The notes under the pieces were generated by a model that did not search any database, had not been told where the DNA came from, and worked only from the letters and a program-made list of their open reading frames with translations. DNA of 64,000 nucleotides from Candidatus Marinacidobacterales bacterium (GTDB lineage Bacteria > Acidobacteriota > Vicinamibacteria > Marinacidobacterales > DATDRI01), in the NCBI GenBank assembly GCA_965226495.1, contig OZ245365.1, positions 2,592,001-2,656,000 on the forward strand, read 5' to 3'. A program made the translations under genes and the position numbers. Below, piece after piece: positions 11,175 to 23,377 of the stretch (within the stretch, counting starts at the first letter, position 1; each line of letters starts with the position of its first letter).

Positions 11175-11279
11175 GTCTCGCTCCTATGTCATGGCTCTCA
11201 CTAGAACTTAGAGAAACTCTGCAGGCGGCCACTGTATGCAGGAGCGAATCCAGTGTCAATCTCGTGTATAACGGGATTC

Positions 11280-12677
11280 ATGACTCGTGAGTTGTGGCAG
11301 CTCGGCGTTGGCGCGTTGACGTCACGTTACCGAGAGCGGAAGACCTCGCCCAGCGAGGTCATGGCGGCGCTCGCCCAGCGAATCGAGCGGATCGAACCCA
11401 CCGTCAACTCCTTCGCTACGCTCACCCTCGACAAGGCTAGAGAAGAGGCGAAGGTCCTCACCGAAGAGCTGGCCCGAGGTGAGAACCGGGGCGCCCTGCA
11501 CGGGATTCCCGTCGCACTCAAGGAGCTCTTCCACGTCGCGGGAGTAGAGACCTCGTACGGGGCGACATTAATAAAGGTGGTGCCGGACCAGGACGCAGCC
11601 TCCGTACACCGTCTTCGTGAAGCCGGTGCGATCGTTATCGGACTAACCCGCTCCCACGAATGGGGTTGGGGCATCACCACCCAGCACCCAGATGGTGGGG
11701 GTACACGGAATCCCTGGGATCTCACCCGGGTGCCCGGCGGGTCCAGCGGGGGCTCCGCAGCGGCGGTCGCCGCGGGGCTCGTCCCTCTGGCGCTGGGAAC
11801 CGATACCGGAGGTTCCGTCCGCCAACCCGCGAGTTACTGCGGCGTCGTAGGCTTCAAGCCAACGTTTGGTCGAATCCGCCGGGGCGGCGTCTTACCGCTC
11901 GCGCCATCCTTCGATCACATCGGCATCATGGCTCGCGAATCCGGAGATACCGCGATCGCTCTCTCCGTTCTCGCCCGCGGCGCTCCTGAATTACCTAAAC
12001 CGCCTGAATTGCCGGTGCGGGGTCTCCGCGTCGGACTCGCTCCAGACTTGAACGTCCTCGAGCTCAAAACCGAGTACGCCACCACGTTGGATCACGTCAT
12101 CCAGCTCCTCACGAGAGAAGGTGCCATTCTTACCGAGCGGCGCGGGTTGGATCCCGATGAAGTCCTCGCTACCTACCTCACCATCCAAATGGCGGAGGCG
12201 TACGACGTGCACCACGACCGGCTCGAGACCTACCCCAAGAGGGCGACCGGCTATTCCGCGCGCATCCGTGCGCGCCTCGAAGAGGCTCAAACGATCGATT
12301 CGTCTCGTGTCGTGGAAGCTCGCGCGAACGTCCCGCGGATCCGTAAACGATTCGAGACGTTCTTCGAAGGGATCGATGTCCTTCTGACACCCGTTGCCGC
12401 CGCGGGCCCGTCCCTCGTCGCAAACCCAGATACCGTTTCACACCGAGGCGTCGAGGTTCCATTTCGAGATCTCGCGATGCACTACGTGATTCACCAGAAT
12501 CTCACCGGCTTCCCGGCTGTCACGATCCGCGCCGGCTTCGATGAAGAAGGCGTTCCGGTCGGTGTTCAGCTTACGGCCGTGCCAGAGAAAGAGAGCCTGC
12601 TCCTCCAACTAGCGGGGAAGCTCGAAGGGATGCTCGCGACGGACCGCCGAAACTGGCCGCCGCTCGAAGATGGTTGA
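11280..12677 (+). CDS. Amidase signature family protein
   Basis: LHGIPVALKE, PGGSSGGSAAAVA, LGTDTGGSVRQPA. Confidence 0.94.
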   Translation: MTRELWQLGVGALTSRYRERKTSPSEVMAALAQRIERIEPTVNSFATLTLDKAREEAKVLTEELARGENRGALHGIPVALKELFHVAGVETSYGATLIKVVPDQDAASVHRLREAGAIVIGLTRSHEWGWGITTQHPDGGGTRNPWDLTRVPGGSSGGSAAAVAAGLVPLALGTDTGGSVRQPASYCGVVGFKPTFGRIRRGGVLPLAPSFDHIGIMARESGDTAIALSVLARGAPELPKPPELPVRGLRVGLAPDLNVLELKTEYATTLDHVIQLLTREGAILTERRGLDPDEVLATYLTIQMAEAYDVHHDRLETYPKRATGYSARIRARLEEAQTIDSSRVVEARANVPRIRKRFETFFEGIDVLLTPVAAAGPSLVANPDTVSHRGVEVPFRDLAMHYVIHQNLTGFPAVTIRAGFDEEGVPVGVQLTAVPEKESLLLQLAGKLEGMLATDRRNWPPLEDG

Positions 12678-12761
12678 GCCTTCTGCCGGGAAGGAGGCGC
12701 CGCCCGGTGTGTGGATAGCTCCTAATCTACTCGGCCTGACAACCGTCACCTTCCTTTTCTA

Positions 12762-12790
12762 TTGACATTTCCGTGACCGAGGTGTAATTA
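12762..12790 (+). promoter_or_regulatory. Sigma70-type promoter candidate
   Basis: Perfect TTGACA at 12762-12767. The AT-rich -10 region TGTAATTA at 12783-12790 gives TGTAAT at 15-bp or TAATTA at 17-bp spacing, in an otherwise GC-rich context. Confidence 0.55.
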
Positions 12791-12794
12791 CTAA

Positions 12795-13145
12795 ATTAGC
12801 TTCCACGGTAGCTTACGCTTGCTACCGCGAACCGGAAAGGAGACACTTCGTGACTCCACCTGGCCATTTGAGGCCTTCAAAAGGCTGAGGCCAGCCGCAC
12901 GCATCACGCGAGCCTGGTCGCTTTTGAAGGTAGGCATACGAGACCGTTTTGACTTAGGTCCGGCCTGTAAACGTATCCTTAGATCGCTGAGCCGAGTTAG
13001 CGCCACAGAATACGGCGCCCCGCGCTCCGATCGGGTCCGGCTTCCAAAAGCCTTTCGGTCGGCTCCCCTAAGTCACTCACTCCTTAGGCTGCTTTCCCAA
13101 GCGGCCCGAAAAGGCGGGGTGTGCACGTGGCCACTCCGCCTTTTC
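12795..13145 (+). ncRNA. Unidentified ~350-nt highly structured RNA with a predicted pseudoknot
   Basis: At least 9 helices seen by eye. G-U pairs occur on the + strand. A 9-bp long-range pair links 12950-12958 with 13067-13075. There is an upstream promoter, a downstream terminator-like hairpin and no credible ORF. Confidence 0.65.
13108..13145 (+). terminator. Intrinsic terminator-like hairpin
   Basis: GAAAAGGCGGGGTG(13108-13121) pairs with CACTCCGCCTTTTC(13132-13145). The U-tract is short. Confidence 0.6.
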
Positions 13146-13285
13146 ACATCCACTGCTCCACTTGCGCGTCCCAACTACCGAAGGCTAAAATACGTCTCGC
13201 ATTTGGAAGCGTTGTCTAACTCCGAGGTGGGTGCCGCCACACCTTGGTCAGTCGAAATCGTCAACCGTATTGGGGGTCAGCAACC

Positions 13286-14314
13286 ATGGCAGAACTCGAT
13301 CCATCCAAGATCTTGCAAGTCGGACTCGGCTACTGGGGTTCGAAAACTCTACTGAGCGCCGTGGAACTTGGCCTCTTCACCGAGCTCGCACGTCAGCCGA
13401 TGACCGGAAAACAAGTCGAGGCGAAGCTAGGGTTGCATCCTCGCGCCACTTACGACTTCCTCGATGCAGTGCTTGCGCTCGGTTTCCTACGGCGCGACGG
13501 AGACGGCGCGGACGGCGTTTATCGCAATACCGAAGAGACCCAGGCCTTCTTGGATCGAGAATCCCTCCGCTACATCGGTGGGATGCTCGAAATGAGCAAC
13601 GCACGCCAGTTCGCCTACTGGAACGACCTCACCGAAGGGCTGCGCACCGGCAAGCCGCAAAACGAGGTAAAGCACACCGGCAAGTCGATCTTCGAGGTGC
13701 TCTATGCTGACCCCGCGCAGCTCGAGAGCTTCATGAACGCGATGGCCGGCATCTCGATGGGTAACTTCAACGCCTTCGCACAGAAGTTCGACTTCTCGCC
13801 CTACAAGACGATGTGCGACGTGGGCGGGGCGACGGGGCAACTGTCGATCGTCTGTGCGCAACACAATCCTCACTTGAAGTGTATAAGCTTTGATCTGCCA
13901 CCGGTGGCGCCCATTGCGCAACAGAGCATCGACGCCGCCGGGATGAGCGGCCGGATCGAAACTGCCCAGGGCAACTTTTTCACGGACCCCTTGCCCGCGG
14001 CAGACCTCATCACCATGGGCATGATCCTGCACGACTGGAACTTGGAGAAAAAGATGCACCTGGTCCGGTCGGTCTACGACGCGCTGCCCCCCGGGGGGAC
14101 GTTCGCGGTCATCGAAAACCTCATCGATGACGCGCGGCGGGAGAACGTGTTTGGCCTCTTGATGTCACTCAACATGCTGCTCGAATTCGGAGACGCCTTC
14201 GACTTCACGGGCGCCGACTTCGACGGCTGGTGCCGGGAGGTGGGCTTCGAGCGGACCGAGGTACTTCACCTCGCCGGGCCCGCGAGCACGGGCATCGCCT
14301 ACAAAGCTAAGTGA
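13286..14314 (+). CDS. SAM-dependent O-methyltransferase (Methyltransf_2 with dimerisation domain; ASMT-like)
   Basis: SAVELGLFT wHTH dimerisation region, CDVGGATG SAM motif, FDLPPV, GNFF, MILHDW. Confidence 0.93.
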   Translation: MAELDPSKILQVGLGYWGSKTLLSAVELGLFTELARQPMTGKQVEAKLGLHPRATYDFLDAVLALGFLRRDGDGADGVYRNTEETQAFLDRESLRYIGGMLEMSNARQFAYWNDLTEGLRTGKPQNEVKHTGKSIFEVLYADPAQLESFMNAMAGISMGNFNAFAQKFDFSPYKTMCDVGGATGQLSIVCAQHNPHLKCISFDLPPVAPIAQQSIDAAGMSGRIETAQGNFFTDPLPAADLITMGMILHDWNLEKKMHLVRSVYDALPPGGTFAVIENLIDDARRENVFGLLMSLNMLLEFGDAFDFTGADFDGWCREVGFERTEVLHLAGPASTGIAYKAK

Positions 14315-14324
14315 AGTGATCTGC

Positions 14325-15497
14325 TCATGTAGCTACCGTCCCGACGTCGAAAGCAACGGCGAGACGGTCGGCCACCGCGAGTCCATCGAGTGTCGGTCGG
14401 AGCGAGTCTTCTTCGAGCTCGACGAGTCCGTCGGCAGAGAGCTTCGCAACGAGGGTCTCGTTGATCTTCAGGAGGTCGACGTCGAACCGCTCGCGTACCC
14501 AGGCAAGATTTAAGCCGTCCTTGGTGCGCATGCGGAGCATGACCGCCTCTAGAAGAAAGTCCTCGTCGCCGAGCGTCTCTCGCCCATCGACCGCACTCTC
14601 CCCGCGGCCGATCTTCTTCTCCCAATCGAAAAGCGAACGCTCGTTCCAAAAACGGGAACGACCGTCGAAGGAATGGGCCGAGGGCCCCAGACCGAGGTAC
14701 GGAGTGTGGTACCAGTATTTCTGGTTGTGGCGCGAGCGGTGCGATTCGGAGCGGGCGAAGTTCGAGACTTCGTAGCCCTCATAGCCCGCATCGGCGAGAA
14801 ACTCATGCGTAAGGCGAAAAAGCTCGGCCTGTCGGTCCTCCGAAACCTCCATGACCTCCCCTTCGCTTTTCCTCCGCCCAAAGAGTGTCTGGTCGTGAAT
14901 CGTCAGCTGGTAGCAAGACAGATGATCGGGCGCTAGGGCGACGGCCGCTTCCAGCTCCTTTCGCCAGCCGGCGACCTCCTGTCCCGGACGGCCGTATATG
15001 AGATCCAGAGAAAGCTCGTTAATGCCGGCCTCGCGCGCGAGGCCGACACTCCGGCGCACGTCGTCAACGGTATGGTGCCGACCCAGCCACCCAAGTGCAT
15101 CGTCGTCCAACGCCTGAACACCCAGCGACAGCGTTCCGATGCTGAGCTCTCGGCAGACGGAGAGCGAAGAGGGGTTTACGTCTTCCGGGTTGGCCTCCAA
15201 AAACCATCGACAACTAGGGGCTAGCCAACCCTTCTCGGCAATGGCTTCTGCGATCTCCGATAGGCCCTCGCCGTAGAGGAACGATGGGGTCCCACCTCCG
15301 AAGTACACGGTGTCGAAGCCCCGAATCTCCTCATCGGCGAGATCGATCTCTCTCAATAGCTGTGAGACGAATCGCTCCTGCCGCGAGTGGTTTCCCGTGA
15401 GCACCGCGAAGTCGCAGTAGGGACAGATCGAAGAGCAGAAAGGAATGTGAACGTAGAGTCCGGGCTTACTCGACTTCGAAGACCGATCAGTCTTCAT
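14325..15497 (-). CDS. hemW: Radical SAM heme chaperone HemW
   Basis: LYVHIPFCSSICPYCDF, YFGGGTPS, EANPED, YEVSNFAR..SRHNQKYW, YLGLGPSAHS. Lies directly downstream of lepA. Confidence 0.92.
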   Translation of the reverse strand: MKTDRSSKSSKPGLYVHIPFCSSICPYCDFAVLTGNHSRQERFVSQLLREIDLADEEIRGFDTVYFGGGTPSFLYGEGLSEIAEAIAEKGWLAPSCRWFLEANPEDVNPSSLSVCRELSIGTLSLGVQALDDDALGWLGRHHTVDDVRRSVGLAREAGINELSLDLIYGRPGQEVAGWRKELEAAVALAPDHLSCYQLTIHDQTLFGRRKSEGEVMEVSEDRQAELFRLTHEFLADAGYEGYEVSNFARSESHRSRHNQKYWYHTPYLGLGPSAHSFDGRSRFWNERSLFDWEKKIGRGESAVDGRETLGDEDFLLEAVMLRMRTKDGLNLAWVRERFDVDLLKINETLVAKLSADGLVELEEDSLRPTLDGLAVADRLAVAFDVGTVAT

Positions 15498-21145: not shown

Positions 21146-21496
21146 ATGATCAACGGTGCGCATTCGATCATCTACAGCAAGAGTCCTGATGAGGATCGCG
21201 CATTCTTGTGCGATGTCTTGAAGCTCCCGAATGTCGACGTCGGAGACGGATGGCTCATCTTTGGATTGCCCCCAGCCGAGGTGGCTGTGCATCCTTCCGA
21301 GAAGAACGACGTGCACGAGTTCTATTTCATGTGCGACGACGTCCAGGCGCTTATCGCGGAGATGGAAAAGCAAAAGATCGGCTGTAGTGAGGTGCAGCAC
21401 CTAGGCTGGGGTTTGCTCACACATGTCACTCTGCCGGGTGGTGGTAAACTCGGGATCTATCAAGCACGGCACGCTCGGCCGGAGAGTCGAAACTGA
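21146..21496 (+). CDS. VOC/glyoxalase (extradiol dioxygenase-like) family protein
   Basis: MINGAHSIIYS..DRAF..GWLIF.LPPAEVAVHP..GWG..LPGGG.LGIYQ. GGAGG RBS precedes ATG 21146. Confidence 0.85.
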   Translation: MINGAHSIIYSKSPDEDRAFLCDVLKLPNVDVGDGWLIFGLPPAEVAVHPSEKNDVHEFYFMCDDVQALIAEMEKQKIGCSEVQHLGWGLLTHVTLPGGGKLGIYQARHARPESRN

Positions 21497-23007
21497 TGAG
21501 CCTTTCCCGACGTCGGCTGTTGGCTCTAATGGGCGGGAGCGTCCTTGCCTCCTGCTCTTCCGATTCAATGATGGATTCCCAGACGCCTGGCGACGTCGAT
21601 GCCGAAACACTCCCGTTCGCCAGTCTGAGGGACGTCGCGCGCTTGATCGAAGCGAAGCGCATTTCCCCCGTCGAGCTTACTCAAATGATGCTCGACCGGA
21701 TCGCGGTCGTCGACCGCCGACTCAGAAGCTACGCAACGGTGATGGCCGACCACGCTCTGGCCGCAGCCCGTGTGGCCGAACAGGAAATTCACGCGGGAAA
21801 CTACCGCGGACCGCTTCATGGTGTCCCCATTGCAGTCAAAGATCTCTGCTACACGAAAGGTGTCCGCACCATGGGAGGGCTTGGCGTCTTGGCCGATTTC
21901 GTCCCAGACTACGACGCGACGGTCGTGTCGAAGCTCGAACAAGCAGGTGCGATTCTGCTGGGCAAGCTCAACATGACGGAAGGTGCGATGGCCGGGTACC
22001 ACCCAGATTTCGACATACCCGTGAACCCCTGGCGAGATGACCTGTGGGCGGGGGCTTCTTCGAGCGGGTCGGGCGTCGCGACCGCGGCCGGCCTCTGCTT
22101 CGCCTCTCTCGGTTCGGATACTGGAGGATCGATTCGTTTCCCTTCGATGACCAACGGAATCGTTGGCCTCAAGCCGACGTACGGTCGGGTGAGTCGGTAC
22201 GGCGTACTGGTCCTGGCCGCGTCATTGGATCACGTGGGACCGATGACCCGTCGTACCGCCGACGCAGCCATTGTTTTGGAGGCGATCGCAGGCTTCGATC
22301 CGAACGACCCGACATCGCTGGAAGCACCGGTTCCGAACATGCTCCAAGGGCTCGCCCGCGGCGTTGACGGCGTGACCATCGGTTTCGATCGGAGGTTTGC
22401 CACCGCAGGCGTCGACCCCGCTCTCGTCGCATCGATGGACGAAGCACTCGCCCAGTTGGAGCGATTGGGTGCAGAAGTGCGCGAGGTGGAGCTGCCCGAG
22501 TGGACGGATGAAATTCAACAAGCGTGGTTCACGATTTGCGCTTCCGAGGCTCGCGTCGCCCACGAAGCCAACTATCCCTCCCGCGCAAACGAATACGGAC
22601 AGTATCTTCGCGAGTTTCTTGCGCAGGCTTCAGACTTCACAGACGCGGACTACGCGGCCGCCAGCCAAATCCGCACCGAATTCAGCGACCGCTTCCGAGC
22701 CGCGTTGTTGAATGCGGATGCCATCGCGACCCCGGCTGGCGGTGTCCCGTTCGCCTTCTCCCAAGAATCGCAACGTGGTGGTATGGATCAATTCGATCGA
22801 TTGATTGAAAACCTCGAGCCGCGTTTCACTTTCCCGGCCGACTTCGCGGGCACGCCCACGATCTCCCTTCCTTGCGGATTCACAGAAGAGGGTCTGCCGC
22901 TCACGATTCAATTCATGGGTAGCGTACTGACTGAACCGATGCTGTGTCGGATAGGTCATGCCTACGAAGAAGCGACTGAGTGGCACGAGAAACATCCCGA
23001 CGTGTGA
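21496..23007 (+). CDS. Amidase, Tat-exported lipoprotein
   Basis: SRRRLL..LASC signal, LHGVPIAVKD, GASSSGSG, LGSDTGGSIRFPS. Confidence 0.94.
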   Translation: MSLSRRRLLALMGGSVLASCSSDSMMDSQTPGDVDAETLPFASLRDVARLIEAKRISPVELTQMMLDRIAVVDRRLRSYATVMADHALAAARVAEQEIHAGNYRGPLHGVPIAVKDLCYTKGVRTMGGLGVLADFVPDYDATVVSKLEQAGAILLGKLNMTEGAMAGYHPDFDIPVNPWRDDLWAGASSSGSGVATAAGLCFASLGSDTGGSIRFPSMTNGIVGLKPTYGRVSRYGVLVLAASLDHVGPMTRRTADAAIVLEAIAGFDPNDPTSLEAPVPNMLQGLARGVDGVTIGFDRRFATAGVDPALVASMDEALAQLERLGAEVREVELPEWTDEIQQAWFTICASEARVAHEANYPSRANEYGQYLREFLAQASDFTDADYAAASQIRTEFSDRFRAALLNADAIATPAGGVPFAFSQESQRGGMDQFDRLIENLEPRFTFPADFAGTPTISLPCGFTEEGLPLTIQFMGSVLTEPMLCRIGHAYEEATEWHEKHPDV

Positions 23008-23107
23008 CCATTCTGCCGGCAGCACGATAACGTCGCCAGGAGGTGGTCCCGTTCTCCGACCGGCTGCGGTAGAATACGGTCAGGCCCTTTGAGACAGGAG
23101 GTCGGAC

Positions 23108-23377
23108 CTGAAAACAATAGTGAATAAGACGCACGAACCCCTCAGGATTCCTTTGCCGCGGGGCAAGACCCTTCACCTGGGGCCTAGCCAGACCGGTCAA
23201 ATCGCAGATGAGCATCTAGAACACAAGCCGCTCGAACGTTTGATCGACGCCGGCAAAATCGAGTGCAAAGACGCCGTCTCCGCCAAAGGAGTTCAGCACG
23301 ACCGTGGACGATCTCCTCACGAGTCGACCCACGGCCATCAGGCTCGGGGTCCGTCGCAGGTCAAGGGCGACCGCTGA
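23108..23377 (+). CDS. Small hypothetical protein, probable CTG start
   Basis: ACAGGAGGT RBS is spaced correctly for CTG 23108 (KTIVNKTHEPLRIPLPRGKTLHLGP). The track start GTG 23120 is in the same frame. Confidence 0.6.
   Translation: MKTIVNKTHEPLRIPLPRGKTLHLGPSQTGQIADEHLEHKPLERLIDAGKIECKDAVSAKGVQHDRGRSPHESTHGHQARGPSQVKGDR

Follow-up and report, generated by a model that had tools for sequence, protein, structure and literature searches.

The 64,000-nucleotide (nt) stretch of a Candidatus Marinacidobacterales genome analyzed here (the window; contig OZ245365.1 of assembly GCA_965226495.1) carries, at positions 12754-13148 of its forward strand, a gene for a structured noncoding RNA (ncRNA) of about 340 nt. 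The gene has defined boundaries and is conserved in sequence and fold; it occurs in RNA libraries and shows no dependence on its neighbors. We consider it very likely to be a genuine stand-alone ncRNA gene of a new family. The best overall explanation, that it is such a gene and that its stable RNA product acts in trans, is given a probability of about 0.7.

The element lies in a gap of 608 bp between the stop codon of an amidase gene (11253-12677) and the ATG of an O-methyltransferase gene (13286). A preliminary description of this DNA had seen no credible reading frame in the gap, and we likewise found no conserved open reading frame there, apart from a 12-codon frame at 12850 that is taken up below. 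The 6.34-Mb genome (G000, one contig) holds one full-length copy; the 12 other matches were 15 to 26 nt long, with E values of at least 0.63. Among 60 relatives, full-length homologs were confined to G002, a member of the same genus with 82% identity, and G003, from a second genus of the family, with 74% identity. A search for the exact motif of the hairpin designated P2 below recovered the same two loci in genome contigs, plus two motif-only matches (L030 and L031), and in metagenome contigs it recovered homologs in L044, L043, and L042 (equal to L041), plus one motif-only match. In total, six distinct sequences are available, three from genomes of one family and three from metagenomes. The element retains 74 to 86% identity across these homologs, while its flanks have diverged beyond alignment. 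In all six sequences, conservation switches on sharply at TTTTCTaTTGACA (TTTTCTaTTGACATT) and off a few bases past the terminal hairpin, and a BLAST comparison of G002 with the window puts the onset of homology at 12754. A miniature inverted-repeat transposable element or another repeat was considered and rejected: the preliminary description had named many genomic copies with target site duplications as the sign of such an element, and what we found was one copy, with neither direct nor inverted repeats beside it and no tandem repeats within it.

No known RNA family accounts for the element. Across the whole window, none of the 4227 models of Rfam 15 matched at its gathering threshold. At an E value of ≤10, the region 12600-13350 yielded only three chance-level matches (14.3 to 15 bits; E values of 5.2 to 8), and the five homologous loci yielded three (E values of 3.7 to 6.5), none of them inside the element. 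The earlier failure to match the sequence to the known RNA families named in the preliminary description held up in this check. In the portions of the literature consulted (including PMC11109978 and PMC8632094), no description of such an RNA was found; supplements, which may list candidate motifs, were outside that scope. The family appears to be new, and the earlier proposal of an undescribed stand-alone structured RNA is borne out by the Rfam result, the single copy, the covarying homologs, the varying neighbors, and the RNA libraries.

The features of the gene, all on the plus strand, are as follows.

12754-13148, plus strand: structured ncRNA gene including its probable promoter block; single copy, self-contained.
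12754-12790, plus strand: probable promoter block, with a T-rich stretch (TTTTCT), a -35 element TTGACA (12762-67), a 17-nt spacer, and a -10-like TAATTA (12785-90).
12795-12805, plus strand: predicted start region and short 5' leader, its position taken from the spacing to the -10 element; A12795 and A12798 are invariant.
12806-13148, plus strand: RNA proper, about 340 nt; RNA-library contigs cover 12806-13124, and the conserved block ends after the terminal hairpin.
12806-12827, plus strand: P1, a 7-bp hairpin (12806-12/12821-27); 85.7% of cells paired, one pair changing from UA to CG.
12834-12864, plus strand: most conserved block, 31 nt comprising GGAAA, P2, and ACCUGGC.
12839-12857, plus strand: P2 hairpin, GGAG-A-CAC/GUG-A-CUCC with a variable triloop; seven pairs invariant in 6/6 sequences.
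12862-12875, plus strand: P3, a tentative small GGCC/GGCC hairpin; 91.7% paired, no covariation.
12876-12928, plus strand: P4, a long hairpin (12876-83/12921-28, internal loop CUGAG, 12889-94/12914-19, 12895-98/12908-12); 94 to 97% paired, six pairs changed on both sides.
12929-12945, plus strand: P5, a small hairpin (12929-32/12942-45); 91.7% paired, one pair changed on both sides.
12951-13074, plus strand: domain II, PL and PM around a three-way junction; fold common to 6/6 sequences.
12951-58/13067-74, plus strand: PL, a long-range helix; 95.7% paired, with UA/CG covariation.
12960-66/13056-62, plus strand: PM helix; 86.5% paired, present in the separate folds of 6/6 sequences.
12977-13035, plus strand: PA, a long irregular junction hairpin of variable tip (GCGCC/GGCGC in the window; G003 and L042 have an extension capped by GAAA).
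13039-13052, plus strand: PB, a short GGCUU/AAGCC hairpin; 90% paired.
13075-13086, plus strand: pyrimidine-rich joining strand (ACYCAYUYC...), which together with 13071-76 is complementary to both halves of P2.
13087-13106, plus strand: P6, a hairpin with a UUCCCA loop (13087-94/13099-13106); 94.3% paired, one-sided changes only.
13108-13148, plus strand: terminal G+C-rich hairpin with 19-nt arms (13108-26/13127-45), then UUUUC; 97.8% paired, one pair changed on both sides.

The promoter block is invariant or nearly so in all six distinct loci, and the sequence immediately upstream of it cannot be aligned. The -35 element matches TTGACA at six of six positions, the spacer is 17 nt, and the -10 element reads TAATTA, TATTTA, or TAACTA; judged by its sequence, this is a probable sigma-70-type promoter of the form TTGACA, 17 nt, TAnnTA. 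A similar promoter (TTTCTTGAAA-17-TAGAAT), likewise with a T-rich stretch directly before the -35 element, precedes the genome's own 6S RNA gene. At the other end, the G+C-rich hairpin and the UUUUC that follows it probably form an intrinsic terminator. Script checks and an inverted-repeat search placed TTGACA, and every complementary segment listed in the preliminary description, where that description had put them. The GC content of the element is 0.56 to 0.59, compared with 0.57 to 0.68 nearby; ARAGORN predicted no tRNA or transfer-messenger RNA (tmRNA) genes in 12500-13400, and TRF detected no tandem repeats.

Folding statistics and comparative evidence both support a structured RNA. The plus strand of 12790-13150 reached a minimum free energy (MFE) of -145.6 kcal/mol, compared with -119.95 ± 5.92 kcal/mol for dinucleotide shuffles (z score, -4.33), and none of 100 shuffles was as good; the z score for the minus strand was -2.89. 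RNAalifold predicted 107 pairs on the six sequences, 13 of them with a compensatory change. Because MAFFT misaligned the variable middle of the element, each of the six sequences was also folded separately, and because the covariance-model alignment of subgroup B to the 3'-domain model was poor (45.5 and 19.3 bits), we relied on these single-sequence folds. In a curated structure of 104 pairs, 91.0% of the cells in the six sequences were paired, compared with 34.5 to 49.2% when the partners were slid by 1 to 3 columns. Both sides had changed in 13 pairs; shuffles gave a mean of 7.5 ± 2.0 and reached 13 or more in 4 of 500 cases, and the slid controls gave 2 to 6. The covariation score was 0.186, compared with 0.040 to 0.093 in the slid controls. 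Homologs with covariation, which the preliminary description had asked for, therefore exist, and the comparative support for the structure is good but not conclusive. The plus strand is favored as the transcribed one because its G.U cells (55) outnumber its A.C cells (17), in agreement with the direction read earlier from the wobble pairs of the window alone.

The helices differ in how they are conserved. In P2, all pairs are invariant while the loop varies, and in P4, six pairs have changed on both sides. L042 is misaligned by MAFFT at P1. For P3, the alternative is the 3-bp extension of P4 drawn in the preliminary description, and the data fit the two equally. Folded one by one, all six sequences gave an MFE structure with the same three-way-junction topology of the 3' domain. 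The four-way junction proposed earlier, closed by 12989-95/13059-65, was not retained: that helix is 76.5% paired, shows no covariation (in 4 of its 7 pairs, unpaired cells are the only departures), and clashes with the better-supported PM, so the core is drawn as a three-way junction. The pseudoknot fared differently in its two parts. The 9-nt pairing of 12950-58 with 13067-75 is a real long-range helix; its pseudoknotted status is not demonstrated because the helix that it would have to cross, 12932-40/12972-79, is weak. This latter helix is 72% paired, occurs only in the O-methyltransferase subgroup, is mutually exclusive with P5, and would be broken by the changes at 12973 and 12975 in a variant contig from an RNA library (X6, described below); in the curated model, these two positions belong to the junction. 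An X6 change of C to T at 12945 keeps the P5 pair as G.U, and the contig with the changes at 12973 and 12975 also carries a compensated pair in the PA tip, C to T at 13004 with G to A at 13014.

The element is also represented in public RNA libraries. A run index listed nine RNA-library runs containing part of it, and four runs from three studies were examined over 11200-14400 (X1 and X3 come from one study). Contigs covered 12835-13117 in X1, 12806-13087 in X2, 12845-13083 in X3, and 12806-13124 in four pieces in X6, which gives a combined cover of 12806-13124 at contig depths of 7.6 to 55.5. The preliminary description had suggested checking for coverage ends near 12795 and 13145. The element was indeed in RNA libraries, and the contig cover spans 12806-13124. 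Contigs of two studies (X2 and X6) start exactly at 12806, the first base of P1, and no RNA-library contig reaches 12795-12805. The X6 start is preceded by 24 nongenomic letters, which we take to be an Illumina sequencing adapter; if so, many fragments end at 12806, a weak hint of a real RNA end. Neither the amidase nor the O-methyltransferase gene had contigs from the four runs within 11200-14400 except for one 40-nt piece; this lack of cover was not counted as evidence, although an abundant small RNA would produce the same picture. That piece, at 11485-11524 in the amidase gene, matches X2 and X3 contigs at 90 to 95%, unlike its flanks, and probably reflects an amidase motif conserved in other organisms. 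Among the RNA libraries with the element, one is labeled as a sponge metagenome.

The distribution is narrow. A covariance model of the 5' domain (R1), run over 55 genomes of the order, found G000, G002, and G003 only; within the family, the RNA was found in two of the seven other genomes. In 151 genomes of the class, searched with R1 and with a model of the 3' domain (R2), only G000 and G003 matched, and in 151 genomes of the phylum, searched with R1, only G000 did; these searches were samples with strict filters and are to be read as "not found in those searched" rather than as "absent." No match was found in viral contigs, plasmids, or phages, and the GC content is ordinary; nothing pointed to a mobile-element origin.

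Several observations weigh against the explanation that we favor, or limit it. The -10 element has A at position 6 in place of the usually essential final T in all six sequences, and a simple scanner called 0 promoters and 0 terminators, with a -10 element ending in A and a U run of only 4 U. We grade the promoter and terminator as probable because the scanner calls neither; of the earlier claim that the RNA has its own promoter and terminator, the conserved promoter-like block and the hairpin stand, and the scanner calls do not support it. The RNA-library contigs reveal neither strand, level, nor true ends, and RNA libraries can hold DNA. In the comparative analysis, "further pair types" were no more numerous than in shuffles (49 versus 48.0; 203 of 500 shuffles reach this number), the sequences number six and come from one family, so that relatedness alone can beat the shuffle control, and the structure was partly derived from the same six sequences and is thereby favored over the slid controls. 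Invariant columns make up 115 of 208 paired columns (55%) and 41 of 143 unpaired ones (29%); with paired columns the more invariant, conserved nucleotides of the type expected in the junctions and loops of ligand- or catalysis-centered RNAs are scarce. In G001, a member of the same genus, the RNA has been lost by a rearrangement that also cut the methyltransferase gene, which makes the RNA dispensable in at least one lineage. Homology of G001 to the window begins at 14157, and only the last 46 methyltransferase codons remain (L050:1489-1638, 87% identity). Upstream of this remnant lies unrelated DNA, part of which resembles window positions 23063-23377 on the other strand. Finally, nothing positively indicates a protein partner.

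With these points in mind, we propose that an independent gene would give rise to a stable, highly structured ncRNA of about 340 nt, transcribed from the conserved sigma-70-type promoter. Its 5' end would lie at 12806, either as the start itself or after trimming of a leader of about 9 nt, and its 3' end would lie at the G+C-rich hairpin with its short U tract. The 5' domain would consist of P1, the invariant P2, and the long P4, and the 3' domain would be closed by the long-range helix around the three-way junction and followed by two hairpins. The RNA would act in trans, not as a leader of the O-methyltransferase gene. It may be bound by protein, as a ribonucleoprotein (RNP) scaffold or as a protein-sequestering RNA, with the invariant P2 block as the recognition site. 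The P2 stem never varies and its loop does, which points to sequence-specific recognition of the helix; the protein-bound mechanism as such is a tentative suggestion that we hold with less than even confidence. To our knowledge, few bacterial RNAs longer than about 300 nt have complex conserved folds, and the ones that are understood are ribozymes or RNP cores. Each new class of large RNA is thus a possible door to new biochemistry, and the regulatory RNA biology of this uncultured acidobacterial group is essentially uncharted in the literature searched. Its compactness, its defined ends, and its presence in public RNA libraries make the element directly approachable; its importance is tempered by a very narrow known distribution and by the loss in one congeneric genome.

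Among other functions, one directed at translation deserves mention first. The P2 region (12838-12855) is complementary to 13071-13084 (AGGAG/CUCCU and GUGACU/AGUCAC), and the alternative fold lies 2.2 to 7.2 kcal/mol above the MFE in the six sequences. This alternative pairing, which came from a scan of many candidates and is not established, might act as a conformational switch and is offered as a lead only. A new class of large RNA directed at translation, in which P2, locking a perfect Shine-Dalgarno (SD) motif and a GUG, forms a switch with 13071-84, strikes us as unlikely. Such a switch would present a decoy initiation site to the 30S subunit, or it would let stalling on a Pro-Pro-Gly micro-frame report the state of translation; if it were real, the RNA would be a sensor or a sequestering RNP rather than a passive scaffold. 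Two further pairings from the same kind of many-candidate scan are likewise not established. CUGAG in the P4 loop (12885-12889) and YUYAG at the foot of PA (12978-12982) are complementary in 6/6 sequences, where one position is variously GU, GC, or AU, and could form a tertiary contact. GGAAAGG (12834-12840) can pair with CCUUUUC (13139-13145) in 5/6 sequences (the outermost pair is G-G in L043), and this may be mere complementarity between an A-rich and a U-rich segment.

The same pyrimidine-rich strand could instead look outward, and 13071-84 would then pair with purine-rich ribosome-binding sites of mRNAs, making the RNA a trans-acting base-pairing RNA or an anti-SD mimic. Over 13077-83, the substitutions in the ACYCAYUYC strand are all C/U, which keeps pairing with G, and the strand is complementary to AAGGAG; the adjoining columns beyond carry a gap and an A/G change. 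We judge this reading improbable, as P2 offers 13071-84 a partner within the RNA, so that no outside target has to be assumed. In the model, invariant unpaired runs reach no more than 3 to 4 nt, and the terminal U tract is short for an Hfq-type RNA, of which a longer one is expected.

A protein-coding gene or pseudogene was rejected: 18 of 20 gap runs in the alignment have lengths not divisible by 3, the homologs differ in their open frames, and the longest frames have no Pfam match. The 12-codon frame at 12850-12888 is a separate matter. It starts with GUG, carries AAGGAG 7 nt upstream, and encodes MTPPG[HD]x[RGK]PS[KR][GA]; the SD-like motif, spacer, GUG, length, and stop position are kept in 6/6 sequences (with TGA replaced by TAA in L044), and the residue changes (K/R and G/A) look conservative. 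If the frame were translated, the RNA would be a small mRNA or a dual-function RNA, and Pro-Pro-Gly, a stalling motif that depends on elongation factor P, could stall ribosomes and remodel the 5' domain. From its sequence, translation of the frame is possible but unlikely, and we give a small mRNA or dual-function RNA little credence. The variable sites of the frame fall on codon positions 1, 2, and 3 in the numbers 3, 5, and 4 (a small sample), with no third-position excess. Its K-to-R change has a compensating change in the other strand of P4 (columns 90/134; AU in four sequences and GC in two), which indicates RNA constraint, and the invariant P2 hairpin encloses both its SD motif and its start codon. 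By a rough estimate that was not computed, an SD motif, a start codon, and a 12-codon frame would occur by chance in about 1 of 20 random 350-nt sequences.

The genes on either side bear on whether the RNA is a cis-acting leader. The gene upstream differs in all six loci (amidase, AdoHcyase-like, Macro, divergent adh_short, unknown, and F420 oxidoreductase-like). Variable downstream genes, which the preliminary description had expected of a trans-acting RNA, were found: an O-methyltransferase gene (PF00891 and PF08100) in four of the six loci and a convergent Peptidase_S9 gene in the other two, G003 and L042. G003 has the RNA and no O-methyltransferase homolog, and G004 has the methyltransferase (59% identity) and no RNA upstream of it. 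The G004 ortholog (L048:1501-2517) contains one in-frame TAG. In G000, the Peptidase_S9 ortholog is 1.46 Mb away (C1, about 4068250; L056:3417-3500), separated by an 82-nt spacer from a convergent gene and with no RNA, so the RNA gene occupies different loci in two genera. Neither the region upstream of the G004 methyltransferase, nor that beside the G001 remnant, nor those beside the Peptidase_S9 orthologs of G000, G001, and G002 held the RNA (best scores, 12.3 and 11.5 bits). Between the RNA hairpin and the O-methyltransferase gene, a promoter-like TTGCGC-18-TAAAAT is located at 13162-13191, and the pattern TTGCnn-17/18-TAnnAT (AAnnAT in L043) is conserved in the four methyltransferase loci; it is promoter-like by resemblance to the consensus only. 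An inverted repeat between PB and the methyltransferase 5' untranslated region is not conserved in G002 and was treated as chance.

As a large riboswitch or attenuator, the RNA would control read-through of its hairpin into the downstream O-methyltransferase gene, which was the fallback reading of the preliminary description. The gene stands directly downstream on the same strand in four of the six loci, while the upstream gene varies; the upstream gene of G002, with an AdoHcyase NAD-binding domain, is a loose link to S-adenosylmethionine; and GGAAAGG (12834-40) would be able to pair with the hairpin's 3' arm (13139-45) in 5/6 sequences, so that an antiterminator is conceivable. Nevertheless, the varying neighbors, with a convergent gene downstream in two of six loci, the patterns in G003 and G004, and the separate promoter-like element argue against a leader and for an autonomous gene. 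The element also matches no aptamer family, and a 300-nt sensor would be unusually large. A leader function is accordingly disfavored and seems to us quite improbable.

On the right, the neighborhood of the window continues from the O-methyltransferase gene to a HemN-like radical S-adenosylmethionine gene and LepA on the opposite strand and then a Ser/Thr kinase gene. A second amidase (PF01425) paralog lies at 21496-23007, 9 kb downstream.

A ribozyme or self-processing RNA, in which the end at 12806 would arise by self-cleavage just upstream of P1, is given as small a chance as the leader function; a ribozyme had been among the proposals of the preliminary description. The RNA is large and multidomain, with a long-range helix, and in two studies the first contig base is exactly 12806, about 9 nt past the predicted start; this end is explained equally well by ordinary 5' trimming or by a true start. 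Known self-cleaving ribozymes include the hammerhead, hepatitis delta virus-like, twister, pistol, hatchet, and glmS classes. No self-cleaving family matched at an E value of ≤10, and conservation is poor among the unpaired and junction nucleotides (29% invariant), unlike in catalytic cores.

That the element is not a functional RNA, and is instead a mobile element, a relic conserved between genes, or DNA contaminating the RNA libraries, is very improbable: its patchy distribution (two of seven other family genomes, different loci in two genera, loss in G001) would suit such an origin, but it is a single copy without flanking repeats, matches no plasmid, phage, or viral contig, and keeps 74 to 86% identity and compensated pairs between flanks that cannot be aligned.

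The independent ncRNA gene can be compared with known systems. A divergent housekeeping RNA was rejected, since the true 6S RNA (RF00013; G000:C1:1663744-1663919, 107.6 bits), RNase P RNA (RF00010; C1:4679515-4679886, 301.1 bits), tmRNA (RF00023; C1:5341135-5341482, 174.1 bits), and signal recognition particle RNA (RF00169; C1:5762994-5763093, 71.6 bits) all lie elsewhere in the genome, with scores above their cutoffs. Riboswitch and attenuator leaders resemble the element in being structured, in standing upstream of a gene (here in four of six loci), and in ending in a hairpin with a U tract; unlike theirs, its downstream gene is not constant and has a separate promoter-like element, and it matches no aptamer model. 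CsrB/RsmZ-type sponges carry many GGA motifs in hairpin loops, and this type was rejected from a reading of the sequence, in which the only clustered GGA motifs are two at 12834-42, one of them inside the P2 stem. The tmRNA is alike in length (about 350 nt), in being highly structured with long-range pairing, and in having a short internal reading frame; however, the element has no tRNA-like domain according to ARAGORN, its frame has its own SD motif and start codon, and its 12-codon peptide is unlike tmRNA degradation tags. Like this RNA, 6S RNA is a stand-alone stable RNA with a similar promoter architecture in this genome, but it is a rod with a central bubble, whereas the present RNA is about twice as long and branched.

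The closest likeness is to the orphan large structured ncRNAs of bacteria, namely, the raiA motif RNA, OLE, ROOL, and GOLLD. The element differs from them in having no Rfam 15 match at an E value of ≤10, in its acidobacterial host family, and in the six sequences known, and OLE, ROOL, and GOLLD are larger than it is. With these RNAs, which like it are orphans as to biochemical role, it shares a stand-alone gene with a promoter and a terminator (both probable in its own case), a length of several hundred nucleotides, many helices, a probable abundance, and a lineage-restricted occurrence.

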